In this document: positions 16,112-44,063 of the stretch, piece after piece
Position numbering within the stretch: position 1 is the stretch's first letter
Layout: every line of letters begins with the position of its first letter
From: a virus
Lineage: Duplodnaviria > Heunggongvirae > Uroviricota > Caudoviricetes
Direction: 5' to 3' (one strand)
IMG/VR virus record: IMGVR_UViG_2698536573_000002
Length of the DNA stretch: 44,146 nt
Translations under genes and position numbers: made by a program
The notes under the pieces: model-generated
Told to the model about the DNA's origin: nothing
Databases searched by the model: none
What the model saw: the letters and a program-made list of their open reading frames with translations, nothing else

Positions 16112-17968
16112 CTATATGTTTACGCCTTTACTTATAACTCTACGGCGTCTTCTACGTATACCTGACGAGTTCTGCACATACACATTACCTCGCATTTCCT
16201 GTTCGGCAAGCCAGTTAAAATTAGGGTTCAGAATTTCCATCGCGGCAGTTGCATAGTTACGGCAATCAAGAGGCTCGTTACGCTCGTAGACTTTCACCCA
16301 CTTTTCTTTTGTCTGCCCATTTTTATATTCAAATATTTTTTTCTCTGATAATAATCCTTTAAAGTATTCGGTATCATATCCTCTGTCAGAATCTAATGGG
16401 AAATGCATATAACCAGGACCAGGATCATGTAGTTTAATTCTTGCCATGATGGTCCCTTTACCATCATCAACCCCCAAATTAAACAACATAGCACCCACAC
16501 GGTTATTATTACTTGGCTTTCCTATAAATGGTAAACCTACCCCACCACGCCCCCTGATAGAGTATATTCGCCTTGATTCTCTCAGCTTAGTGAAGCGATA
16601 TACCTCTGTCGTAAAATGCCCACCAGAGTCAATACAAACAGAAGAAATCTGTAATTTTCGACCGTCACGGAATGACCAGCTACGGAGTAAGTATTCATCA
16701 AGTTGTTTCCAGACAACATCTTGTGCGGGATCACCTGGGAATATTTTATATTCTATCCCCCATGACTCCTTACCTTTTCCCCAACCGACCAATTCACAAA
16801 CTAAATACGTGTCCTGTACGTCAACACCAGCACTTAACAATAAAACATCATCTGGTAAAAACTCTTCAAACCTTATTCTGCGTTGCAACAAGTATTCAGG
16901 ATCGATATCGTCTTTAGCATCCTCTTTCCATGGCTCACCCAGCTTAAGGTTAATAAACTCCATTAATCCATTTTTATCGCGGTTTCTGGTTGCTTCCGTA
17001 AATTCTTCAACCAGCTCTGACAATGCAACCCACGGGGAGTAAAGACTGTTAATATGAAAACCAACAATACCTTTAACTCCAGTATGTTCAGCTATCCATA
17101 CCCCCTTTGCCAACCAATCAACGTCTGGTTTACCAGATCCGCGCATAATCCCGCCGCACTCACAGCACTCATATCTGGCCGTTTCCGGTAACGCCTCACC
17201 TGAATCGCTCTTATCCCATCTGACTTGCGACCATTTCATCACCTGCATGGTGCCACAACATGGGCAAGGAACATGGTAGTAACGCTGATCGGAGAGCTTA
17301 AACCACTTGTGGATTTTGCTCGTTTCCTCAAAAACAGGAGTAGAAACAAAAACTTTCTTACGATTATGAAAGTTGGTAGTACGCTGAATACCTAGTTTTA
17401 GTGGGTCGCCCTCCTGCGTCACACCGTAACGATCAATCTCATCAGCTAACAGTATTCGAATTGGCCTGGATGCAAGACCTGCTGGGGAATTAGCACCAAC
17501 AAGTGCTATATATCCACCAGCGTAATGCTTCATACGTATAGTCGTGCTGGACTTTTTGGCTGCACCGCGCCCCTCTTTTCCTTCATGCAGCTTGTGTTTC
17601 AAACCAGGGGAATATTTGAACGTCGGATCAATACGCTCCTTTGAAAAAGCCTCAGCCGCCTCTACCGTTGGATAAATCATCAACTGAGGAGATGGCTCCT
17701 GATCTGCAAAGTAACCCATAACATTTAGCTGTAATTCGGATTTACCAATTTGCGAGCTACATTGCATCACTACTGTTTCTGTATCAGCGTCACCAATAAC
17801 ATCCATTGGTTCACGCAAATATGGCACTCGGCTTGTACGCCACGGCCCTGGCTCTGGAGACGTTCCCGGCGCTACATGACGATACTTATCAGCCCATTCG
17901 GAAACAGTTAGCCGTGATTTAGGGCGAAGCGCACGGAAAAAAGCGGTGCTCCATACTGTTTCGCCCAT
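16112..17968 (-). CDS. terminase large subunit, lambda gpA family
   Basis: 618 aa; size and position fit lambda A. Confidence 0.85.
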   Translation of the reverse strand: MGETVWSTAFFRALRPKSRLTVSEWADKYRHVAPGTSPEPGPWRTSRVPYLREPMDVIGDADTETVVMQCSSQIGKSELQLNVMGYFADQEPSPQLMIYPTVEAAEAFSKERIDPTFKYSPGLKHKLHEGKEGRGAAKKSSTTIRMKHYAGGYIALVGANSPAGLASRPIRILLADEIDRYGVTQEGDPLKLGIQRTTNFHNRKKVFVSTPVFEETSKIHKWFKLSDQRYYHVPCPCCGTMQVMKWSQVRWDKSDSGEALPETARYECCECGGIMRGSGKPDVDWLAKGVWIAEHTGVKGIVGFHINSLYSPWVALSELVEEFTEATRNRDKNGLMEFINLKLGEPWKEDAKDDIDPEYLLQRRIRFEEFLPDDVLLLSAGVDVQDTYLVCELVGWGKGKESWGIEYKIFPGDPAQDVVWKQLDEYLLRSWSFRDGRKLQISSVCIDSGGHFTTEVYRFTKLRESRRIYSIRGRGGVGLPFIGKPSNNNRVGAMLFNLGVDDGKGTIMARIKLHDPGPGYMHFPLDSDRGYDTEYFKGLLSEKKIFEYKNGQTKEKWVKVYERNEPLDCRNYATAAMEILNPNFNWLAEQEMRGNVYVQNSSGIRRRRRRVISKGVNI

Positions 17969-23175: not shown

Positions 23176-23249
23176 CCCATGTTCTCCTTTGTCTGGATGT
23201 AAAAAAGCCCCGGCAATTGCCGAGGCTCGTTGTTCGTTATCGTTACGGT

Positions 23250-23450: not shown

Positions 23451-23716
23451 TCATCATCTCCTGCCGCACATACAACCTCACAAAAAAAATCAGCAGAATG
23501 TTTCTCCTTGAACGAATGACGCTCAAAACCGCACTCAATATCAGGCGCAAAAACATCCACCACATACGGTCTTTCAGAATGTTTGTTTTCCCAACGATAA
23601 ACCGTAGTGACGTTGAAATGTTTTAACGCTTCACGGAACTCAACGCTGCCCGTCAGGTTTTTTGAGGTCAGGTATTGCAGGAGGTTTTTTACTACTTCAC
23701 GGTCTTGTACTTTCAT
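23447..23716 (-). CDS. hypothetical protein, first gene after repeat copy 1
   Basis: 89 aa; ATG at 23716 is the last triplet of the conserved repeat, RBS GGAGA inside repeat. Confidence 0.4.
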   Translation of the reverse strand: MKVQDREVVKNLLQYLTSKNLTGSVEFREALKHFNVTTVYRWENKHSERPYVVDVFAPDIECGFERHSFKEKHSADFFCEVVCAAGDDE

Positions 23717-23825
23717 CAGATTTCTCCGGTTTAACCAGGGCGGGTATCGCTCGGTTTCGGGTATAACCTTAGGAAATTTTTTCCCACCTGTAAAGCACTT
23801 TTTATATAAATCTATAATTATATAA
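23717..23825 (-). repeat. ~109-bp promoter-bearing repeat, copy 1
   Basis: Near-identical to 29974-30082 and 40078-40187; contains TTTACA-17bp-TAAGGT, 5' leader and RBS. Confidence 0.85.
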
Positions 23826-23827
23826 TT

Positions 23828-24415
23828 TTATGCCACTTGCCAGAGAGCATCATGCAACTGGATACCTCCATTGCACTGGTTGCCCCAGCCATGCCAACCA
23901 TCAGGTAAATCACCGCGAGCAAACAGCTCAATACGAGGAACATCACCTAACAGCCTTACCAGCTTGTCACGAACCACATCAGGCTTCCGAGAATGCTCCA
24001 GACGAGGCGATGTAAACGACTGAATGATCCCCGCATCAAGGCGGGTCGGCAATTTGCCTTTTACCGCAAACAAGCAATCTTCACTGTTTGCACGAGTCAT
24101 ATGCCCCATCCCCATCACCAGCTTATCTGGTTGTCGGCTACCACATTTGTTCCATGTGAAGCCCTTCATGGTCATAAGCCTGAATCCCCATGCTTTCACC
24201 ACCAGCAACGCTTCTTCTGGCTGAGTCGGAACCCACCACATGGCCAACAAACACGATTCAGGATTAGCAAGCTGCCAGACAGGAATACGAGCAATATCCT
24301 CAGCTTTCATCGTTGGATACTTAAAACCAGCTCCACGATTCCCATCCTTACACTTATCTTTGTATTCCCAGGGGGGATCTGCATAAATCAGATTAAACAA
24401 TGCAATTGCCTCCAT
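23828..24415 (-). CDS. MT-A70 family DNA N6-adenine methyltransferase
   Basis: 195 aa starting ...LIYADPPWEY (DPPW catalytic motif near N-terminus). Confidence 0.75.
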   Translation of the reverse strand: MEAIALFNLIYADPPWEYKDKCKDGNRGAGFKYPTMKAEDIARIPVWQLANPESCLLAMWWVPTQPEEALLVVKAWGFRLMTMKGFTWNKCGSRQPDKLVMGMGHMTRANSEDCLFAVKGKLPTRLDAGIIQSFTSPRLEHSRKPDVVRDKLVRLLGDVPRIELFARGDLPDGWHGWGNQCNGGIQLHDALWQVA

Positions 24416-24723: not shown

Positions 24724-24799
24724 TGGTGGCCCCTACCGGATTTGAACCGATGACCGTGCGATTATGAGTCGCCTGCTCTAACCACTAAGCTAAGGGGCC
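24724..24799 (-). tRNA. tRNA with anticodon CAT, ileX/ileY-like (tRNA-Ile2 type; Met not excluded)
   Basis: 76-nt cloverleaf: acceptor GGCCCCT/AGGGGCC, D-arm GCTTAGTGGTTAGAGC, anticodon loop CTCATAA, T-arm GGTTCAAATCC, encoded CCA. Confidence 0.8.
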
Positions 24800-24968
24800 A
24801 TATTTGATTTGTTTGTCTGGTGTGGCGCCGCGCACGAAAATCCCAGCCAATAAATTCAGGATTTTTGGGCGCGGCGGCATATCAGACAAACATGGTTGAT
24901 GCGTGCGCCCATGAGAAAAGCGCATAGAATGTTGTAACTATATATTTATATAATTATAGAAATATATA

Positions 24969-25178
24969 TTACTTTCGGCAGTTGATTTCCCATGCCCTGT
25001 TATGAGCCAGAATATCTTTCTTTGTCTGGCGGTCCATAACATCGATGTCGTGATCAGTCAGGTAGATGGGCTTTACCCAATCACAGGCGGTATCAACCAC
25101 CACCGGGACGCTTCCACGACTCCCGCAGCTCGCGATCAACATCGTCATCAGCCATATGGTTAACACTCTGCTGTACAT
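24969..25178 (-). CDS. o-spanin (Rz1-like lipoprotein)
   Basis: 69 aa with lipobox-like LIASC after hydrophobic N-terminus; overlaps 3' end of i-spanin gene in another frame. Confidence 0.5.
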   Translation of the reverse strand: MYSRVLTIWLMTMLIASCGSRGSVPVVVDTACDWVKPIYLTDHDIDVMDRQTKKDILAHNRAWEINCRK

Positions 25179-26588: not shown

Positions 26589-26620
26589 AAAAAAAAAGCC
26601 CCGCCGAAAAAGGCAGGGCT
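26589..26620 (-). terminator. intrinsic terminator immediately upstream of holin
   Basis: Minus-strand hairpin (agccctgcc/ggcggggct) followed by 9 U; ends ~14 nt before holin start. Confidence 0.55.
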
Positions 26621-26905
26621 TCATAAAGCAACAAATTACGCGGTAATCGCTTAACGCAGTTTTACTACGTTAAATGAAACACTACACCCAGTTACCACCT
26701 AAAACAAGGTTTCCCCATAAAAAAACCTTCACAATGTGGTTAATCGATCGATAAAAAAACAATACTTAACTTTTGACCAACCGAACATCCCGACCAGGAC
26801 TTCCATAATATTCGCCGATATGCCACTGCTTAAGTTGAGTAATCTTCTCCAACTTAACTCCCATAGAGTCCAGTTTCTGCCATGTTTTCGGTTGTATGTG
26901 CTTCA

Positions 26906-27265
26906 TTACCCGCTCTGAATATCTGAATACTGCTCGTAAGCGCATGGATTCTCACTACAGCTTATCCAACCACCCGGAGTTACCGAAACTGGCGGCGCGG
27001 CATATAGCTTACGGGTCTGAACACCTGCCCCCTGACATTTCTCTTCCTCAACAAACCATTCGAAAGCACATTCCCCGCAATCTTCCCATTCTCCCCATTC
27101 ATCATATTCTGCATCCCACTGGCGATACTGATATGCCACCGGTTCTGCTTCCAGCAAGGCTAACGCTATTTCATAAGCCCGGCGCTCAATATTGTCTCGC
27201 ACATCCAAGCGGCCTATGCGCTCTTTGATTTCTTTAATCAGTTCTTTGTCGGTAAAAGTGGTCAT
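26906..27265 (-). CDS. hypothetical Cys-containing acidic protein
   Basis: 119 aa ORF; CGEC...C motif. Confidence 0.3.
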   Translation of the reverse strand: MTTFTDKELIKEIKERIGRLDVRDNIERRAYEIALALLEAEPVAYQYRQWDAEYDEWGEWEDCGECAFEWFVEEEKCQGAGVQTRKLYAAPPVSVTPGGWISCSENPCAYEQYSDIQSG

Positions 27266-27471
27266 TTGTTAATCCTCAAAACTTTATGCCCGGGCGCAAA
27301 AGCACGCGTTTTGTCTTTGCTTATTCGCCAGCCATCCTTGCGCGCCTCTTTTGCACAGCCAGCCCATGACGTACCGATATACTCACCGAAGTCTGGCACT
27401 GGATATACACCTTCCGTACACTGGCGGCAGTCACAATAGAGATGCATGGTGTAACTTGCGGCAATAGCCAT
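27262..27471 (-). CDS. hypothetical small Cys-rich protein
   Basis: 69 aa, CDCRQC motif. Confidence 0.3.
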   Translation of the reverse strand: MAIAASYTMHLYCDCRQCTEGVYPVPDFGEYIGTSWAGCAKEARKDGWRISKDKTRAFAPGHKVLRINK

Positions 27472-27472
27472 A

Positions 27473-28036
27473 TCATTCTCCTTTGATGCGAATACCAGCA
27501 GCGCGGATTGCAGCGATGACTTCAGAAACTTTGTATGCCATTACCGTTTGGTAATCCTCGTGAAAATCTGTTCGATGAAGCATGCTGCTACGTTCTGGGA
27601 GCGATATTTCCCGTGCTTCCAGTTCTGCAATGCGCTTCTCTGCGGATTCCAACGCCGCAACCAATTCGTCTACAGTTCCGGCAGCTTGCAGTGCGTAATC
27701 GGTAATAGCCATCTCATGATCAATTTCAGTACCGTTCTCATTCGTTGAGGTGATAGCAAAATAATCAGAGTCGATTTCGTTATCAGCTAAGTGGCGTAGC
27801 GTATCGGCAACAAGCCGGCCGTTTTCGATTAGCAGCTTCCCTACCGTAAGCGCAATATCCTCGTTCTCCTGGTCGCGGCGTTTGATGTATTGCTGGTTTC
27901 TTTCCCGTTCATCCAGTAGTGCCAGCATAACCTGAGGTGTGACTTTCATACGAAATGCCAGCAATTTTTGAGGCGTTGCTACTGTTTCAATTGCTACTGC
28001 TGCCTCACGCAGTGCCTGATAGTTAATCTCACTCAC
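27473..28036 (-). CDS. hypothetical protein
   Basis: 187 aa ORF, coupled to neighbours. Confidence 0.3.
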   Translation of the reverse strand: MSEINYQALREAAVAIETVATPQKLLAFRMKVTPQVMLALLDERERNQQYIKRRDQENEDIALTVGKLLIENGRLVADTLRHLADNEIDSDYFAITSTNENGTEIDHEMAITDYALQAAGTVDELVAALESAEKRIAELEAREISLPERSSMLHRTDFHEDYQTVMAYKVSEVIAAIRAAGIRIKGE

Positions 28037-28550
28037 TGATTGCTCCCCCGCAAACCAATCCTGAACGGATTACCGTTTTTACAATATGCGCCCGTAATTG
28101 TTGCGTTCCGTGGTACTTGATTGCCACATCGCGTAACTTATTAACCAGTTCCCTGACCTGATGTTCCTTTGCTTCCTGTGTCACAGGAATAATTCCAGCT
28201 CTCCGCCGTTCCTGAAGTTCCAGCATTGCGGCCCGGAAATCCTGCCACCATTCCTCATCGGCTACTGGGGTGTTCCGCTCCAGCACCTTGTCCGCATCGG
28301 CGATCAGGTTTGACAGACTCTTGTCTGAAATCTTCGTTACCGGAGTCGTTGGTTGCTCAACCTGCCCGATAGGTTTTATCGTGCTCAAAAGGAGGCGACG
28401 GCGGGAAAGTGGTGCCCCACAACGACGGCCATCTTCCTTGCGATATGTTTCTTTCGGACCAACACACCAGGTTGTCGGCGTTTCGCGTAACTTCACTCTT
28501 TTCTCACCATCATTGGTAATGATTATTCCGGTATGGGTTTTGATGCTCAT
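28029..28550 (-). CDS. hypothetical protein
   Basis: 173 aa ORF. Confidence 0.3.
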   Translation of the reverse strand: MSIKTHTGIIITNDGEKRVKLRETPTTWCVGPKETYRKEDGRRCGAPLSRRRLLLSTIKPIGQVEQPTTPVTKISDKSLSNLIADADKVLERNTPVADEEWWQDFRAAMLELQERRRAGIIPVTQEAKEHQVRELVNKLRDVAIKYHGTQQLRAHIVKTVIRSGLVCGGAISE

Positions 28551-28828
28551 GCCACAGCCCCTCTCAACGGCTTTACTTTGGCTAATAAGGTGTTAAACAA
28601 CATGGAGTTAGGATTCATGCCAAATGGCAATTCCGGTTTAGCGGAGTAGTACAGGCAACCATTTATTTTCCTGGTTGTTATCTGTCCTTCGGCAACCATG
28701 CTTCTCAGTCTGCAACGCATAGAGTTCTGCGACACACCAATGTGTTCCGCGATTACGTCCACTTTTGAACATGGGTGATCGGTCAGGAAATTAATCACAT
28801 CTTGGGGGTTAATAATTTTGCGTTTCAT
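28547..28828 (-). CDS. putative winged-helix DNA-binding protein
   Basis: ORF 28547-28849; start at 28828 (MKRKI) preferred, AAGGA 11 nt upstream; AT-rich motif just upstream. Confidence 0.4.
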   Translation of the reverse strand: MKRKIINPQDVINFLTDHPCSKVDVIAEHIGVSQNSMRCRLRSMVAEGQITTRKINGCLYYSAKPELPFGMNPNSMLFNTLLAKVKPLRGAVA

Positions 28829-28905
28829 TGTCGAGGCGTCCTTATACATTTATATAAATATATAATTCTATATACGGCGGGAGACATCCCGCCGTAGGCT
28901 TACTG

Positions 28906-29973
28906 TCAGGCTTTCAATAGCGATTCTTTCAGATATCGGGCATCAGCCAGGGCGTTTGGAGTAATCTTGCGAACCCATGCATTACGGGTTGGACTCCACT
29001 TAAAGGCGCGTGATTTAAGCAGCGAACGAATGTTTGCCTCTGGTTTGCCAGGGAAATAAAACAGGATGCGGTTATCCTCTGGATCTATCTCCATAGAAAA
29101 GCCGTCGTATTCTTCGCGCTGTGCTCCTGTTACAGACTTGACCGATTCAAGCTCCTTAATACGGCTCTGTAGTCGTTTGATTTCGGCATTATTGTTACTC
29201 AGTGAGTATGAAGGGAAGCCAATGTGCCCACAGAAATCTCCGGCGAGTAACCCTTTGGCTTCGCTTTCAGTAAACTCAAGGTCAATTAATGCGGAAAGCT
29301 GCTGTAATTGGTCTTTTTTGTATTTGCGAATAGCCTTATTTGCGGCCTTCATTTTGATGTGTGACTTCATGCAGCCTTGCAGCTTACGAAGCAACTTAAA
29401 TAGCGCATCAGGATCATCAGACGAAACTCCATTACGGCCGACACCTGCGGCTTTGCTTTCGTAGTACGATGCTCTGCTTTCACACTCAACAAACGATTTT
29501 CTGAATAACGCATCAGCTTTAGACAAACGGCGGCGATGGCCTTTCGCGCTATAATGGTCAACTAAAATCGGCTGGCCTAACGGGATCACATCCAACAGTT
29601 CATGCGCTCGCTTATGCGCCACCGCACCTTCTTTTCTGGCTTTTTCTGCACGAGCAATATATCGGGCAAGACGCGCGTTCTGGCGTTCCTGATAGGTATT
29701 TACGTAATCATCTCCGCGCTGCTGCTGTTCAAGCCATGCTTTGCGCAGCTTTTCTGTTACGTCTACCAACTCTGCAGGGATACAACCTGTTTGGGATTCA
29801 TAAGAGTGACCATCCTCATAAAGACGTCCATCGTCTTCAACAACGAAAAAGGTTTCGTGCTCATCGCTTTTGACCATACGGCCATTAACATGACGTAATC
29901 TATAGCCAGTATCAGTGCTCAACAGGCTGTTAGGGTTGTTGATCCAGTCAGAAATAATTACTTGTTTATTCAT
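28906..29973 (-). CDS. hypothetical protein (355 aa), first gene after repeat copy 2
   Basis: ORF 28906-30123; start at 29973 (MNKQV) preferred because it is the ATG closing the conserved repeat. Confidence 0.45.
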   Translation of the reverse strand: MNKQVIISDWINNPNSLLSTDTGYRLRHVNGRMVKSDEHETFFVVEDDGRLYEDGHSYESQTGCIPAELVDVTEKLRKAWLEQQQRGDDYVNTYQERQNARLARYIARAEKARKEGAVAHKRAHELLDVIPLGQPILVDHYSAKGHRRRLSKADALFRKSFVECESRASYYESKAAGVGRNGVSSDDPDALFKLLRKLQGCMKSHIKMKAANKAIRKYKKDQLQQLSALIDLEFTESEAKGLLAGDFCGHIGFPSYSLSNNNAEIKRLQSRIKELESVKSVTGAQREEYDGFSMEIDPEDNRILFYFPGKPEANIRSLLKSRAFKWSPTRNAWVRKITPNALADARYLKESLLKA

Positions 29974-30082
29974 CAGATTTCTCCGGTTTAACCAGGGCGG
30001 GTATCGCTCGGTTTTGGGTATAACCTTAGGAAATTTTTTCCCACCTGTAAAGCACTTTTTATATAAATCTATAATTATATAT
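29974..30082 (-). repeat. ~109-bp promoter-bearing repeat, copy 2
   Basis: One mismatch vs copy 1 over ~105 bp; -35 tgtaaa at 30046-30051, -10 acctta at 30023-30028 (plus-strand coordinates). Confidence 0.85.
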
Positions 30083-30143
30083 TTATAGATTTTCCGATAT
30101 TCCCGGTGCCTACAAATCACCAAAACAGCTCAAAATGACACTT

Positions 30144-30521
30144 TCATTCTCTTCTCTTTTTCAAGTAGTCGACAACATACGCCCTGGCTTTTGCCAGCTT
30201 CCGGCGATACTGTCTGAGACTAAGAGAAAGGGCGTGGGCTTTATCAATATGCGGTGCATTTATGTCGAGGCCCCGAATCTCCCACGCCCCGTATTCAATT
30301 CGGACAACCAGCGCCGCAGTCTCATCAACTACCGTGAGGGCCGTCACCGCTCCCTCGATACTGGTTTCCAGTGAGTCATTTGGTGCGCCGCCCCCTCCGG
30401 TAAACTGGCAACGCGTAACCATCATCATTTCTAACATCGACGCGAAACCGCTACGGGCGTTGCAGCCATTGCGCACCCACAGCGCCCATAGCTCAAACAA
30501 GCTATCCAGATCGCGTCTCAC
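30144..30521 (-). CDS. putative Q-like antitermination protein
   Basis: 125 aa, GTG start overlapping upstream stop (GTGA); N-terminal LFELWALWVRNG resembles Q of 82/21 type as I recall it; last gene of early operon, followed by a promoter repeat. Confidence 0.4.
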   Translation of the reverse strand: MRRDLDSLFELWALWVRNGCNARSGFASMLEMMMVTRCQFTGGGGAPNDSLETSIEGAVTALTVVDETAALVVRIEYGAWEIRGLDINAPHIDKAHALSLSLRQYRRKLAKARAYVVDYLKKRRE

Positions 30522-33796: not shown

Positions 33797-33820
33797 CTGC
33801 AAGCGGGCTAACGCCCGCTT

Positions 33821-33930
33821 ATATGATTATAGATTTATATAATTATATAAAACACTTTTCATCCGCCAAAAAGTTGGTTATGCTTACCTCATTCTATAAA
33901 TATAGATTTATAGAATTATATAATCAAACA
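33821..33930. repeat. clustered AT-rich palindromic motifs upstream of parA (candidate centromere/operator)
   Basis: tatgattatagatttatataattatataa and tataaatatagatttatagaattatataa; same core as in the three promoter repeats. Confidence 0.5.
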
Positions 33931-33946
33931 CATGGAGTCTCGACAA

Positions 33947-34600
33947 ATGACTATATCTGTAGGTATTTTCAACGGAAAAGGCGGCGTAACCAAATCAACC
34001 ATTGCTCGTGCTTTAGCAGTTGCTTATGCAAAGGCTGGCTGGAATGTATGCCTGATCGATATGGATGTGCTTAACGGAACGGTAACGCGTTGGGTACAAC
34101 GCAGAATGGCCAACAATATCGAACCTGCAATCGCGGCGCAGCCGTGCGGCACGCCATCACAAGTCCAGAAAATCATCGAATCAGAAGTATACGACCTGGT
34201 TATCGTTGATGGCGGTGCCTACGCATCTGAATCAGTACCGAAGCTCTCTGAATTTCTGGATATGGTTATTTTGCCAACCAGATTCTCTACCGATGACCTG
34301 GAAACCACCGTTAACACAGCTCACGGCATCGTTAAAAAGGGTGTACCAATCAAGAAAATTTGCATGGTGTTTTCCGGCGCGGCTGAAAACGAAGCTGACT
34401 ATATTGAAGCCCAAGAGTACCTGGCTAATACGCCATACTTTGTTGTCGATAAGTACATTCCCCACAAGCCAGCTCTGAGCAAAGCTCAGGATAAAGGCTT
34501 AAGCCTCATTGAGTGCTCATACGTTGCGCCACGCAAAAAAGCAGACGACGTTATTCAGGGGATTATCAACCAGCTTGAGGCTCTGACTACTGCCGCGTAA
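33947..34600 (+). CDS. ParA/ParF-type partition ATPase
   Basis: Deviant Walker A GIFNGKGGVTKST; start at second ATG (GGAG 9 nt upstream); ORF from 33932. Confidence 0.8.
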   Translation: MTISVGIFNGKGGVTKSTIARALAVAYAKAGWNVCLIDMDVLNGTVTRWVQRRMANNIEPAIAAQPCGTPSQVQKIIESEVYDLVIVDGGAYASESVPKLSEFLDMVILPTRFSTDDLETTVNTAHGIVKKGVPIKKICMVFSGAAENEADYIEAQEYLANTPYFVVDKYIPHKPALSKAQDKGLSLIECSYVAPRKKADDVIQGIINQLEALTTAA

Positions 34601-34643
34601 TATATAATTATAGTTTTATAGATTTATATAAGAGAGGATACAC

Positions 34644-34892
34644 ATGGCCGCACCATCAAAACCACCAAAGAAGAACAGCAAAGGCGTACCGCCATCGATC
34701 GAACAACCGCAGGTTTTCGACCCGACTGAAACGCCAGCCAGAACCAAATCAGGTGGGGCACAAATGGCGTTTAACGTCGACCCTGAATTTAAACGCGAGT
34801 ACAAAACGTTCGCCAGCTCAATGGATATGTCATTGAAAGAAGTGCTAACAAAATCTTTTGAGTTACTCAAGGCTCAATACAACCAGAAGTAA
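34644..34892 (+). CDS. ParG-like ribbon-helix-helix partition protein
   Basis: 82 aa, unstructured basic N-terminus then RHH-like MAFNVDPEFKREYKTFASSMDMSLKEVL; RBS GAGAGGA. Confidence 0.55.
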   Translation: MAAPSKPPKKNSKGVPPSIEQPQVFDPTETPARTKSGGAQMAFNVDPEFKREYKTFASSMDMSLKEVLTKSFELLKAQYNQK

Positions 34893-35112: not shown

Positions 35113-35136
35113 ATAAAAAAGGCCCCCGAAGGGGCC
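35113..35136 (-). terminator. intrinsic terminator (minus-strand orientation)
   Basis: ggcccc-cgaa-ggggcc hairpin followed by U6 on minus strand, directly after small ORF 35143-35265. Confidence 0.5.
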
Positions 35137-35142
35137 TAATCG

Positions 35143-35265
35143 CTACTTGCTGCTAATGTTTATCGTCACATTCAGAGCGTTATCAGTAATCTTCCAACCC
35201 TCTCCATGTGGCGTAAACAAAGCCCCAGTAACAACGATAAAAATACACATGTAGTATTTTTTCAT
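35143..35265 (-). CDS. small hydrophobic peptide (40 aa)
   Basis: MKKYYMCIFIVVTGALFTPHGEGWKITDNALNVTINISSK; RBS AAGGG; own terminator. Confidence 0.35.
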   Translation of the reverse strand: MKKYYMCIFIVVTGALFTPHGEGWKITDNALNVTINISSK

Positions 35266-35655
35266 TGTGTGGCCCTTACAGGCCGTTTCACGGCATCCCC
35301 ACCGACGAAAATGACGCGAGAGCAAGCACGCTGTTTGTGCCTGCGTGGTACGGCAAGTGGATAATCCTTTCCTGAAAGTCAGTGCCCGGGTGCGAATCGG
35401 CGGAAAGGCCCCAAGCCATATTACACGTCATACCCTTCATAATGAAGGAATAAAAAACGCTTTTATTACATGAGATTACACGTAAATAAGTTAAAAACCT
35501 TCATTTTGCATGAGCTAATGAGCTAAATTTTTTTATATGAATAGTGGACTATTCACCTCAGTTAGGTAAGAATGTAGTTGCTGTTTGTGCTTGCGTGGTT
35601 GTATTAGTACAACGACGTTATGCTGAAAGGACCGCGAATCCGATCAGCACGAAAG

Positions 35656-36419: not shown

Positions 36420-36521
36420 AATGCGCCATTGGTGGACACTTTCCGAGCCGTAGCAAAATCTACGGTCGGGATTGGAACCCCGATAATCATCATGGCGCAT
36501 ACCGCGTTAGCGGTTTTTTTA
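36420..36521 (+). ncRNA. candidate small regulatory RNA (c4-like) upstream of antirepressor operon
   Basis: TTGACA at 36412-36417; terminator accgc-gtta-gcggt + T7 at 36501-36520; short elements complementary to leader near 36603-36634. Confidence 0.3.
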
Positions 36522-36685
36522 TGCGTAAAGCACTGCTACACCCAAATTATGGTGGGGCGTGCGGGGGAGTCGTAAGACTCGCCGGATTCCATGGTGACCG
36601 GTAGTTCCAACCCTGTACGTCTCACCACCCAATGATTGGAACCAGACGGTGGTGAGTATCCTTAACCTTTAAGGGAACTATCACC

Positions 36686-36877
36686 ATGACAAACCTACCC
36701 CATGACTATTACGTCAACCTCGTAAAGATCCTTCTCAAGAAAGCCTCATACGCCGATAAATTCCGCCTGGCTGAAATCATCGAGCGCGAAGCTATGCGCA
36801 TCGCCAGCAACGATAACGCTGTTTCTGTCGCAAAAATCTCCCTCGTAACCAAAGTAGTTATGGGAGGTGCAAAATGA
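36686..36877 (+). CDS. small leader protein translationally coupled to antirepressor (icd-like position)
   Basis: 63 aa; stop TGA overlaps ant ATG (ATGA); RBS AAGGGA. Confidence 0.45.
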   Translation: MTNLPHDYYVNLVKILLKKASYADKFRLAEIIEREAMRIASNDNAVSVAKISLVTKVVMGGAK

Positions 36878-38055
36878 AAACGCTTCCGACCGTTAACACC
36901 CTACAGCCTATCCTGCATAACCAGCTCCCCGTTATCACTACTGAACTACTGGCGCAATTGTATGGAACCGAGCGCCAACGTCTGACAAACAATTTCAATA
37001 GAAACAAGGAACGTTTTATAGAAGGTAAACACTTTTTTAGGATAGAAGGTAAAGAGTTACGAGAGTTGAAGAACAAAAACTCTTTAAGAGTTCCTGTGAG
37101 AGTAGTTAACGAACCATCTTTAAGAGGGTTACAAATTCCCCCGAAAGTTCGCTCCCTCATCCTCTGGACAGAACGCGGGGCTGCACGTCACGCCAAAATG
37201 CTTGAAACTAACCAAGCGTGGGATGTGTTCGAACGGCTGGAAGACAGCTACTTCAACCAGAACGCACAAACGGCCGCGACCGTAACCGTCTCACCAAACA
37301 ATGCTCGTGAGGTTGTCGATACGCTCAACGCCAAACCAATGTATTACGTTAAGGTGTGCAACAACGAGCCACTCACAACCTCAGCCGATGTAGCCCAGGC
37401 ATTCAGCACCACAAACAATTCCATCGTTATGGCCATCGATGCATTACGCATTCCTCGCACAGCTGCGGCACGTCATTTCTTTAAAGAGCAACGACCGCTG
37501 GAAGGAAGCGACCGCGAAATAACAATCTATCGCATGACAAAAGACGGATTTACCTTGCTCATGGAAAGTATCGACGGTCCAGGCGTGAAGGATATCAAGC
37601 TGGCCTACATTGAAGCCTTTAACGCTATCAGCAGCGTGTTAAAGGCAGAATACGAGCGAATGCTATACAACCGACTGTATCAGGAAACAAAGATTATCCG
37701 AACGGCAACAGAACATCATCGGCTATTAACGGAACCAAACTACCGCAAGACACTAATCAAAGAGTTTGACAAGGCGACGGAGAAAACTAAAGCGGCACTA
37801 AATCTACCAACAATGACTAAAGATGATGTGATATCAGCCTTACTTCTTGATCTGCTCAGAAACGTCAGAGCACTTATCAGTTTTGACGAAAACCTGAATC
37901 CTCAGCTCAAGCTACTACCACCGACAGGCAAAGTAGTCGACCAAGCAGATCACAACAGCATACTCAGCGTACTGGATGCAAACCTGCCAGCCAGGACACT
38001 ACAGGAGCTGATAAAAATATCTGCGGATAAACTGGCCGCAGGTGCAAAACCATAA
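36874..38055 (+). CDS. antirepressor (ORF6N/KilA-N-like N-terminal domain plus Rha-like domain)
   Basis: 393 aa; N-terminal LPVITTELLAQLYGTERQRLTNNFNRNKERF and central MYYVKV...TIYRMTKDGFTLLM blocks. Confidence 0.6.
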   Translation: MKTLPTVNTLQPILHNQLPVITTELLAQLYGTERQRLTNNFNRNKERFIEGKHFFRIEGKELRELKNKNSLRVPVRVVNEPSLRGLQIPPKVRSLILWTERGAARHAKMLETNQAWDVFERLEDSYFNQNAQTAATVTVSPNNAREVVDTLNAKPMYYVKVCNNEPLTTSADVAQAFSTTNNSIVMAIDALRIPRTAAARHFFKEQRPLEGSDREITIYRMTKDGFTLLMESIDGPGVKDIKLAYIEAFNAISSVLKAEYERMLYNRLYQETKIIRTATEHHRLLTEPNYRKTLIKEFDKATEKTKAALNLPTMTKDDVISALLLDLLRNVRALISFDENLNPQLKLLPPTGKVVDQADHNSILSVLDANLPARTLQELIKISADKLAAGAKP

Positions 38056-39696: not shown

Positions 39697-40077
39697 TTAC
39701 TTAACGAGGAATAAAAATGGTTTATTGTTCGGCGGTGTAATCGGAGCTGGCTCGCTTTTGCTCATGCGATCAGTGTACCAGGCCAGCTCCTTGTCAAAGT
39801 AAGCCTGATTAAAATAGGCAATGAATGTAGTTTCAAATCCATAACGACCGCTAATACGCAGCATCTGATTGCCGTTCTCTGTTTCCAGATATACCTGGGC
39901 ACGTTCCTGATTCTCCTTCAGCCAGGTTAAAGCCTCATCGCACGAGGACACACGATACTCATCATCGTAGCCGTCATCGATGCGGCTTGAAGAAGAACGG
40001 CAAATCACGCCAACAGAACCAGCCAGGATAGTTTGAATTTTAAGGAAAGCGTTTTTGCGGATTTTAATCATGCTCAT
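39697..40077 (-). CDS. hypothetical protein, first gene after repeat copy 3
   Basis: 126 aa; ATG at 40077 closes the conserved repeat. Confidence 0.4.
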   Translation of the reverse strand: MSMIKIRKNAFLKIQTILAGSVGVICRSSSSRIDDGYDDEYRVSSCDEALTWLKENQERAQVYLETENGNQMLRISGRYGFETTFIAYFNQAYFDKELAWYTDRMSKSEPAPITPPNNKPFLFLVK

Positions 40078-40187
40078 CGGGTTATCTCCGGTTTAACCAG
40101 GGCGGGTATCGCTCGGTTTCGGGTATAACACTAGGAAATATTTTCCCACCTGTAAAGCACTTTTTATATAAATCTATAATTATATAA
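40078..40187 (-). repeat. ~109-bp promoter-bearing repeat, copy 3
   Basis: About 95 percent identical to copies 1 and 2; same -35/-10 spacing. Confidence 0.85.
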
Positions 40188-40240
40188 TTCCATGAGCACA
40201 AAAAAGCCCCTTTGCAACAGGGGCTTATCATTCGTTCTGA

Positions 40241-40540
40241 TCAGATGTTAAACGCTATTCGTTTTCCTGTGGGAAGCTCAACATCCAGGCTTAATTTGCC
40301 TCCCATAGCTTCAACGTAACGCTTTAATGTCGCCAGCTTTAAATCATTTCCGCGCTGCTCCAGCTTTGTTACTGCTGGCTGGCTTATACCCATCGCCTCA
40401 GCAACCTGCTTTTGTGATAACTGGAGTTCTTCACGCATCATCTGCAAGCCGACCTCAAGAATCATCTCATCTGCCATTTCTTTAATTCGCGCCTGGCTTT
40501 CCGGTGAACGGCTGGCAATCACCTCATCTAATGTTCTCAT
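40241..40540 (-). CDS. HTH antitoxin (HigA-like)
   Basis: 99 aa; LQLSQKQVAEAMGISQPAVTKLEQ and C-terminal LATLKRYVEAMGGKLSLDV. Confidence 0.55.
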   Translation of the reverse strand: MRTLDEVIASRSPESQARIKEMADEMILEVGLQMMREELQLSQKQVAEAMGISQPAVTKLEQRGNDLKLATLKRYVEAMGGKLSLDVELPTGKRIAFNI

Positions 40541-40893
40541 TACTTGCTCTCCAGTGTGTTCAGATGTGCTGCAAACTCATCCTCAGCTATACGCACCAGT
40601 TTTTTATAAAACCGCTTATCGTTACTTTTGTCTCCTGCACAAAGAACGATAGCCCGGCGAATCGGATCGAACGCATAAAAGGCTCTTATCGGACGGCCAG
40701 AAAACTGAACGCGAAGCTCTTTCATATTTTTGTACCGAGAACCTTTTACGGTATCGGCATATGGCCTGGGTAACTCAGGTCCGTAAACCTGTAGCTTTTT
40801 CAAATCAGCCAAAACCTTTTCCTGAAGAGCGTCTTCTTGCTCATTTAGCCAGTCGTCAAATCGCTGGCTAAAAAGTACCGTCCACATGCTCAA
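40540..40893 (-). CDS. RelE/HigB-family toxin (Gp49-like)
   Basis: 117 aa; toxin-first order with overlapping stop/start; TVKGSRYKNMKELRVQFSGRPIRAFYAFDPIRRAIVL. Confidence 0.55.
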   Translation of the reverse strand: MSMWTVLFSQRFDDWLNEQEDALQEKVLADLKKLQVYGPELPRPYADTVKGSRYKNMKELRVQFSGRPIRAFYAFDPIRRAIVLCAGDKSNDKRFYKKLVRIAEDEFAAHLNTLESK

Positions 40894-43508: not shown

Positions 43509-44063
43509 TCAATGATTCCCAGCCGGAAACCTGCGGTAAAGCGTGGATAAAGTAACATCGAAGATAATCGCTATCCGCTTACGTGAAACACCATTCGCAA
43601 TAAGCCTTCCGATCTGTTCCCATTGCTCTGGTGACAGCTTTGAGCGGCGTCCTCCGATCCTGCCGTTAGCCCTTGCCACCGCCAATCCTGCACGCGTTCT
43701 TTCAATCATATTTTCCCGCTCCATCTCTGCGACTGCACTCAGCATCGTGTAGGCAAAGCGGCCAATTGAAGTGCTAATTTTTATCCCTTCCGTAATCGAA
43801 ATAAACTCAATGTTGTTTGATAAAAAATGGTTAAGTAAATCAACAAGATGAATCAGGGAACGCCCCATTCGGTCCAGCTTCCAGACAATAACCGTATCGC
43901 CCGGCCGTAACACCTTAAGTAGCTTATCAAGTCCTGGTCGTTTTGATTTAGCACCGGATATTTTATCTTCAAAAATCCGGTCACATCCTAAACTCCTGAG
44001 CGCCTCCAGTTGTAATTCCAAATTCTGGTCAAAAGTTGACACCCTCGCATAACCATATTGCAT
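43509..44063 (-). CDS. serine recombinase, DNA invertase (Gin/Cin/Pin/Hin family)
   Basis: 184 aa; GYARVSTFDQ catalytic Ser, VWKLDRMGRS, AEMERE, GRIGGR, C-terminal HTH LSTLYRR. Confidence 0.8.
   Translation of the reverse strand: MQYGYARVSTFDQNLELQLEALRSLGCDRIFEDKISGAKSKRPGLDKLLKVLRPGDTVIVWKLDRMGRSLIHLVDLLNHFLSNNIEFISITEGIKISTSIGRFAYTMLSAVAEMERENMIERTRAGLAVARANGRIGGRRSKLSPEQWEQIGRLIANGVSRKRIAIIFDVTLSTLYRRFPAGNH

Follow-up and report, generated by a model that had tools for sequence, protein, structure and literature searches.

A survey of plasmid leading regions counts the DUF3560/YdbA family, with 1913 members, among the large families found there and gives no function for it (PMC11541004, supplementary file 3), and the pO157 plasmid has a DUF3560 gene that is flanked by an antirestriction gene and ssb and is upregulated 5-fold under ciprofloxacin (PMC11125564). 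In lambda and in Shiga toxin (Stx) phages ea22 favours lysogeny (PMC7093339, PMC10834534), and genes of the Ea22/exo-xis type bias the lysis-lysogeny decision; for lambda Ea22 a structure of the C-terminal domain has been obtained by nuclear magnetic resonance (PMC10834534). P1-like phage-plasmids (RCS47, P7, D6) carry a cassette made up of an Ea22-like gene, a 210-nt open reading frame (ORF), a DUF551 gene, eaa and an ASCH gene. In the late control region of lambda only a short leader separates pR' from tR', and the stx genes lie downstream of tR'. Canonical ArdC of R388 has a metalloprotease C-terminal domain. Here we compare with these systems a block of genes on the minus strand (26906-29973) of a 44,146-nt stretch of viral DNA (IMG/VR record IMGVR_UViG_2698536573_000002, Caudoviricetes); this whole stretch is called the window in what follows. 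An initial annotation had described the block as six genes without a confident family, situated between a Q-like gene and the lysis cassette of a lambdoid phage, in a slot where toxins or defence genes might be carried. We find that the first gene encodes a DUF3560 protein and the fourth an Ead/Ea22-like protein, that the window derives from a phage-plasmid, and that the block falls into a conserved head and a shuffled tail. We give about even chances to the reading that the block forms a transcription unit of accessory, non-structural genes in this circular phage-plasmid and that this unit serves establishment or modulates lysogeny.

The element and the conservation of the block

The window aligns at 98-99% identity across 40 kb with pTD225C4_47, a circular E. 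coli plasmid of 47,458 bp. The annotation of this plasmid lists RepA and ParA, an XRE repressor and a toxin-antitoxin pair of the RelE/ParE type, and in addition genes for terminase, portal and capsid, for the sheath, tube, baseplate and fibres of a tail, for a GH108 endolysin and for two holins. Since the window is almost identical to a plasmid with RepA, ParA and contractile tail genes, it represents not an integrated lambdoid prophage, the setting assumed at first, but a nearly complete E. coli phage-plasmid of ~47 kb, which has a contractile tail and whose regulatory genes are ordered much as in lambda. Plasmids of 47-52 kb from E. coli and E. albertii are close relatives, and so are the Yersinia phages vB_YpM_39, 41 and 44, which were deposited as virions; the literature that we found on the family is limited to a listing of two deposited phage genomes. 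The family occurs in clinical E. coli, and 58 PLSDB records contain gene 1 of the block at ≥90% identity.

All six ORFs called in the block are present on the minus strand, and each of the encoded proteins matches a PHROG family with E 2.7e-31 or better, whereas the four longest plus-strand ORFs of the block match nothing; we therefore regard the six as real genes rather than chance ORFs. None of them is a phage housekeeping gene, which agrees with the accessory character proposed at the outset. The count of six was nevertheless too low, as a seventh conserved ORF at 26766-26945 (minus strand, 59 aa), overlapping the end of gene 6, had been missed. Genes 2-6 are tightly packed, with start and stop codons that overlap or abut; e.g. 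the start of gene 3 overlaps the stop of gene 2 (ATGA). An Rfam scan detected no RNA family inside the block, and searches of PDB chain sequences with the six block proteins and the upstream regulator yielded nothing usable.

We compared this slot in six relatives (L001-L004, L010 and L011), where L001 is pTD225C4_47 and L011 a diverged relative of the element from Enterobacter cloacae. All six contain the gene of the upstream regulator, genes 1 and 2 and the first module of gene 3. In the E. coli and Yersinia elements these head genes are 95-100% identical; in L011 the identity is 90% for the regulator, 69% for gene 1, 49% for gene 2 and 77% for the first module of gene 3. After the head, the cargo differs in nearly every element and includes an ASCH-domain gene, DUF7446, other Ea22 variants, a DndB-family gene and pseudogenes, the latter annotated at the position of the block tail in three relatives. 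Past gene 1 of L011, the hairpin stem, the AT-rich motifs and the ribosome-binding site are kept and the cargo switches exactly at the ATG: a 352-aa DndB-family gene (L011 9145-10203; Pfam E 2.8e-46) follows the DUF3560 gene, starting at the ribosome-binding site that in the window precedes gene 2. (A Lar-like zinc-ribbon ORF suspected in L011 was not supported by Pfam.) Judged by sequence comparison, the head of the block (DUF3560 plus helix-turn-helix gene) is conserved backbone and not cargo, while the tail consists of a shuffled cassette that many coliphages share. The block does sit between a small regulator and the lysis cassette, but the original picture of a slot for accessory cargo fits its tail and not its head. 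As the main plastic region of this phage-plasmid family, the block is the place where new cargo could arrive.

Such variable content, with a DndB-family gene in one relative, could also mean that the block is moron cargo benefiting the host, i.e. a toxin, a superinfection exclusion system or an anti-phage defence expressed from the resident plasmid-prophage. Gene 1, with a predicted promoter of its own and a hairpin behind it, has a moron-like layout; gene 2 shows a weak match to a Ren-like exclusion PHROG (E 0.002); and a terminator in front of the holin gene would permit expression without lysis. However, a search of PADLOC-DB 2.0 returned only SoFic (E 0.0063) and PbeC (E 0.016), both at ~12-14 bits and far below threshold, and Pfam and NCBIfam show no toxin, nuclease, nucleoside triphosphatase or membrane domains in the block. 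The families that could be assigned are ones described from the leading regions of plasmids and the early regions of phages and not from defence islands. The G/C content of the block (0.46-0.48) is not atypical and does not differ from that of the flanks, and across the seven elements compared the variation is confined to the tail, genes 1 and 2 being found in each. The location also differs from that of an Stx-type moron: the block lies upstream of the strong terminator in front of the holin gene, whereas stx genes lie downstream of tR'. We consider moron cargo improbable, and the toxin or defence function envisaged at first finds no backing in these searches.

Gene 1, a DUF3560 protein with plasmid relatives

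Gene 1 (28906-29973, minus strand) encodes a protein of 355 aa that matches DUF3560 (Pfam PF12083) with E 3.7e-31 and 108.2 bits against a cut-off of 27.2; residues 94-216 align to profile positions 2-124 of 124. The protein also matches phrog_6744 (E 5e-229). The initial statement that no block protein has a confident family is thus not borne out for gene 1, nor for gene 4 (see below). An AlphaFold model of the gene 1 product (predicted local distance difference test score 93.8) consists of an N-terminal beta domain, a long helical bundle with two invariant loops and a small C-terminal alpha/beta domain. Invariant in a 66-sequence alignment are Q134, P135, L137, H140, S142 and R147 as well as G179, G182, S184, D187 and P188; the protein carries the loop motifs of the family, GQPILVxHxS...R and GxxGxSxDDP.

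Using tblastn we found homologues of gene 1 in 438 PLSDB plasmids from many genera, 234 of which are conjugative. On a Serratia IncFII plasmid, a full-length homologue with 56% identity lies downstream of psiB/psiA and upstream of DUF932, an SLT gene and traM, which is the position of a classical leading region. Other homologues are fused to an N-terminal ArdC-N domain, and some are annotated as 'ardC'. Because its homologues are found in these contexts (conjugative plasmids, a leading region, ArdC-N fusions), gene 1 is a member of a plasmid family associated with the DNA that enters first. With the DUF3560/YdbA proteins of conjugative plasmids gene 1 shares the Pfam model and the invariant loops, but it differs from them in its setting, a phage-plasmid without annotated relaxase or oriT, where it is located between a late-type regulator and the lysis genes. 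The ArdC-type fusions of PromA and other plasmids share the DUF3560 core and the C-terminal domain, with ~42-45% identity over 70-75% of gene 1; in gene 1, however, a beta-rich domain of ~90 residues takes the place of the ArdC-N domain, which binds single-stranded DNA. Indeed, no match of gene 1 to ArdC-N (PF08401) was obtained at E≤0.1. The metalloprotease domain of canonical ArdC is likewise absent from gene 1.

The C-terminal half of gene 1 invites another interpretation, according to which the protein is a replication or priming accessory of phage DNA metabolism and the block part of the lytic replication programme. Residues 174-351 match phrog_19458, a family labelled 'primase', with E 7.9e-36; a profile search with the C-terminal domain returned mostly short fragments of the same family, one of them named TraC in its source record; and the upstream neighbours of the block are a Ref nuclease gene and a DUF1064 gene, both also annotated in pTD225C4_47. 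Yet Pfam and NCBIfam detect no primase, Toprim or polymerase domain in gene 1, so that the PHROG label, which applies to the non-catalytic C-terminal half only, lacks the backing of a catalytic domain. The model, a helical bundle with two small domains, has no enzyme-like fold match, and DUF3560 proteins are common on plasmids whose modes of replication are unrelated. We regard a function of the block in DNA metabolism as very improbable. For the C-terminal domain we had presumed a likeness to DUF5710 of TraC-type primases, and for the SDDPDA loop of the protein a likeness to the DksA/Gre tip motif; we claim neither.

Genes 2 to 6 and the exchange of the tail

Gene 2 (28547-28828, minus strand) is predicted to encode a winged-helix DNA-binding protein. 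Its ORF can be read from 28849 as 100 aa, the length given initially; the start at 28828 (93 aa) is most likely, judging from the annotation of the gene as 282 nt in relatives and from the conserved ribosome-binding site. The winged-helix assignment is based on a match to phrog_1687 ('MarR family', E 5e-32) and on winged-helix matches in Pfam (FaeA, HTH_24, TrmB) that are all below threshold. The sequence is 99-100% identical in the E. coli and Yersinia relatives. Gene 3 (28029-28550, minus strand) encodes a mosaic protein of 173 aa, and its PHROG matches are split by segment: residues 1-117 match phrog_7520, while the last ~55 aa match a different family. Only residues 1-117 are kept in L002-L004 and L010, where the gene comprises 121 aa; the full 173 aa occur in L001 only. 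By its matches gene 3 is a fusion, in which a C-terminal module of ~55 aa has been joined to the conserved module.

Gene 4 (27473-28036, minus strand; 187 aa, GTG start) matches the Ead/Ea22-like family (Pfam PF13935) with E 1.7e-16 and 61.5 bits against a cut-off of 27, and it also matches phrog_250. The Pfam match is confined to residues 2-72, which align to profile positions 1-106 of 139; in addition the protein has a coiled coil. A phmmer search of gene 4 against all PDB chains, among which the C-terminal domain of lambda Ea22 is presumably included, gave no relevant match even at E≤10. Gene 5 (27262-27471, minus strand) encodes 69 aa with four cysteines (C13, C15, C18, C39), matches phrog_926 (E 7.8e-37) and is 98-100% conserved in those relatives that have it. 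Gene 6 (26906-27265, minus strand; 119 aa) corresponds to the N-terminal portion of a DUF551-type protein: phrog_5117, phrog_60 and phrog_660 match its N-terminal part only, no match to DUF551 in Pfam was found, and the annotation of pTD225C4_47 treats the counterpart as an incomplete pseudogene that lacks the C-terminus. Gene 6, counted at first as a gene like the others, is probably a truncated remnant of a DUF551-type protein. The seventh ORF behind it matches phrog_9594 (E 8.6e-46) and is 97-100% identical in L001, L002, L004 and L010 and 54% identical at the amino acid level in L011; it is absent from L003.

The stretch of genes 4-6 occurs with 90-95% DNA identity in hundreds of phage records, comprising Stx phages, P1-like phages and other coliphages. 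When complete E. coli genomes were searched with a 4-kb query, 3411 out of 5426 matched some part of it. In Stx2 phage 86, homologous genes of the exo-xis region, between exo and int, share this DNA identity and the same order (Ea22-like, small ORFs, DUF551-type). In the window, by contrast, genes 4-6 follow the Q-like gene instead of lying in the pL operon between exo and int, and gene 6 is truncated. The P1-like phage-plasmids have the same cassette; in the variable region of RCS47 an Ea22-like gene is followed by small ORFs and then by DUF551, and the 210-nt ORF between the Ea22-like and DUF551 genes occupies the position of gene 5. Here the cassette sits in another backbone (about 47-50 kb in E. 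coli and Yersinia records, with RepA/ParA and a P2-like tail) and in another position relative to the lysis genes. These are ordinary, widely shared coliphage accessory genes, and nothing in them hints at virulence, toxin or defence.

With slot content that differs in nearly every relative, one may ask whether the tail, from the C-terminal module of gene 3 to gene 6, is recombinational debris without a selected role, in a slot refilled by illegitimate or homologous exchange between prophages. Gene 6 without its DUF551 domain, the pseudogenes annotated at this place in three relatives, the module fusion in gene 3 and the 90-95% identity of the tail DNA to unrelated phages all fit this explanation. 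On the other hand, the reading frames of genes 2-6 are intact and their start and stop codons overlap, gene 5 shows 98-100% conservation in every element that has it, and effects of genes of the Ea22 type can be measured in lambda and Stx phages (PMC7093339). We think it unlikely that the tail is mere debris.

Control sequences and a model for the block

The promoter-plus-leader repeat that had been noted in front of gene 1 is real and is one of three near-identical copies of ~117-127 nt with 84-95% identity (23704-23830, 29961-30087 and 40066-40192), which run into the first codons of an 89-aa ORF, of the DUF3560 gene and of a 126-aa ORF, respectively. In the region before gene 1 (29974-30090, minus strand), copy 2 contains a -35 hexamer TTTACA (30051-30046), a 17-bp spacer and a -10 hexamer TAAGGT (30028-30023), followed by a leader of ~45 nt with the Shine-Dalgarno sequence GGAGA (29984-29980). 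All three copies have this make-up, with the same two hexamers, spacer length, leader and GGAGA and with AT-rich motifs in addition. The hexamers were read by eye; a promoter scan flagged none of them. The repeat is kept at 88.6% upstream of the DUF3560 gene in L011 (7882-7995), with TATGGT as the -10 hexamer, although an extra gene has been placed there between the regulator and the repeat. A second copy is found in L011 at 16244-16326. The sequence TATACC downstream of the -10 hexamer, considered as a sigma-dependent pause element, is not conserved in L011 and was rejected.

An AT-rich motif with a period of 8 bp (TTATAGAT / TTATATAA) has 19 matches in the window, compared to 0.34 expected. 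Its sites (23802-23833, 24930-24977, 28834-28873, 30059-30090, 33819-33931, 34600-34639 and 40164-40195) include positions upstream of the three promoters, with 30059-30090 belonging to copy 2, and positions on both sides of a small ParA gene (33932-34600). The sites around ParA may point to a link to partition control. Between genes 1 and 2, a cluster of the motif (family D1; 28834-28873, minus strand) is followed by the conserved ribosome-binding site. An 82-aa ORF after ParA (34644-34892) matches phrog_6024 and has no match in Pfam or PDB; as a side hypothesis, it could be a putative ParG/omega-like binder of the AT-rich motifs.

Behind gene 1 the hairpin reported before at 28875-28894 was found again as a 10-bp stem with the loop UGUC at 28873-28896 (minus strand; -19 kcal/mol, z -4.6; equally good folds in 0 of 200 shuffles). 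Its stem is kept in L011 with another loop (GCAA). The block is closed by a strong intrinsic terminator at 26595-26622 (minus strand), an 11-bp stem followed by at least 8 U (-20.5 kcal/mol, z -5.0), which ends 20 nt before the start codon of the holin gene (26575); a similar terminator is present at the corresponding place in L011. A second strong terminator (23205-23228, minus strand; 10-bp stem, then a T run) follows promoter repeat 1 at a distance of ~600 nt. The layout at 23.8-23.2 kb parallels that of the block: promoter repeat, two small genes and terminator, and then ParB-like, terminase and structural genes.

The regulator gene just upstream of the block (30144-30521, minus strand) encodes 125 aa that match no Pfam family, including those of Q proteins, and that match weakly, in NCBIfam, the PA0613 family of the R-pyocin cluster. 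In fold comparison, the protein shows a possible likeness to Q21 and AlpA. Regulator, promoter, terminator and lysis genes follow each other in the same order as in the late control region of lambda (Q, pR', tR'), and terminators precede the lysis and packaging genes. In contrast to lambda, ~3.4 kb of genes lie between promoter and terminator, and there is no sequence match to Q.

For expression timing, antitermination and any biochemical role of the block we infer the following. Transcription would start at the promoter-leader repeat and run through gene 1, the hairpin, the coupled genes 2-6 and the seventh ORF to the terminator in front of the holin gene. The lysis genes would thereby be insulated from the block unless the terminator is overridden, and the block could be expressed without lysis. 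The 125-aa protein with its possible likeness to sigma region 4 and Q21 would be the most likely agent to override the terminator and let transcription reach the late genes. As the same layout occurs twice, in the block and at 23.8-23.2 kb, the promoters presumably feed units limited by terminators. Alternatively, the promoters may be silent until they are activated, which the weak -10 hexamer would allow. The product of gene 1 would act soon after DNA entry and help the incoming replicon to establish itself, possibly with its terminal domains and the two invariant loops as contacts to DNA or to a host factor. Gene 2 may be a local regulator. The stretch from the C-terminal module of gene 3 to gene 6 would be a recombination-shuffled set of the Ea22/exo-xis type, exchanged with lambdoid, Stx and P1-like phages.

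Several observations weigh against a unit for establishment or lysogeny control as outlined here. The model of gene 1 has no meaningful match among PDB folds, enzyme-like or other, and DUF3560 has no member of tested function. Only 60 Escherichia records were found with tblastn, the common DUF3560 genes of F and pO157 being too distant to appear. The annotation of pTD225C4_47 contains no relaxase, oriT or type IV secretion system genes, and one relative of the element is typed as non-mobilizable; the logic of a leading region therefore applies by analogy only. In the fold comparison of the regulator, sigma-region-4 domains outscore Q21, and neither Q21 nor Q-lambda nor AlpA was recovered when PDB sequences were searched with a profile, which leaves the earlier 'Q-like' label without support from sequence. 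The -10 hexamer TAAGGT is weak (3 of 6 positions), so that transcription from the promoter may depend on an activator and be off while the element resides as a plasmid. Finally, the hairpin behind gene 1 has no proper U tract and was not flagged by a terminator scan.

A more general proposal, which we think rather unlikely, takes DUF3560 to be an entry or establishment factor common to conjugative plasmids and phage-plasmids that is wired into a combined plasmid- and phage-type regulon. If so, the DUF3560 factor might protect or condition the incoming DNA or counter a host response. Three promoters with AT-rich motifs that also flank ParA, transcripts held by terminators and a Q21/sigma4-like override would then link plasmid- and phage-type control. 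DUF3560 is one of the large uncharacterised families in the leading-region survey, and its fixation in a phage-plasmid behind a thrice-repeated promoter offers a simple genetic system for testing the role of the family.

Some further features of the element were observed outside the block. At its ends (1 and 44146) the window lacks only a tail-fibre segment of ~3.8 kb, which corresponds to L001 40177-44002. This segment adjoins a recombinase gene (window 43509-44063), and pTD225C4_47 has opposed tail-fibre and tail-fibre-assembly genes there. As only this invertible tail-fibre segment is absent, the contig probably broke there. The lysis cassette is separated from an MT-A70 methyltransferase gene by a tRNA with the anticodon CAT (24724-24799, minus strand); it is a tRNA-Met according to ARAGORN, and its counterpart in pTD225C4_47 (L001 14818-14893) is annotated as tRNA-Ile. 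A RelE/ParE toxin gene and a helix-turn-helix antitoxin gene (40241-40893, minus strand), named by correspondence with pTD225C4_47, are closely followed by a terminator (40204-40226) and promoter repeat 3. Adjoining the partition genes, we found a full-length match to the Rfam ryfA family (35115-35413, minus strand; 134.7 bits, E 1.9e-34). Rfam also detects isrK (70 bits) and C4 antisense RNA (84 bits) at 36447-36632 (plus strand), directly upstream of a 393-aa ORF (36874-38055) that corresponds to the ORF6N/Rha antirepressor genes of relatives, an arrangement that we take to resemble the immI control region of P1/P7.

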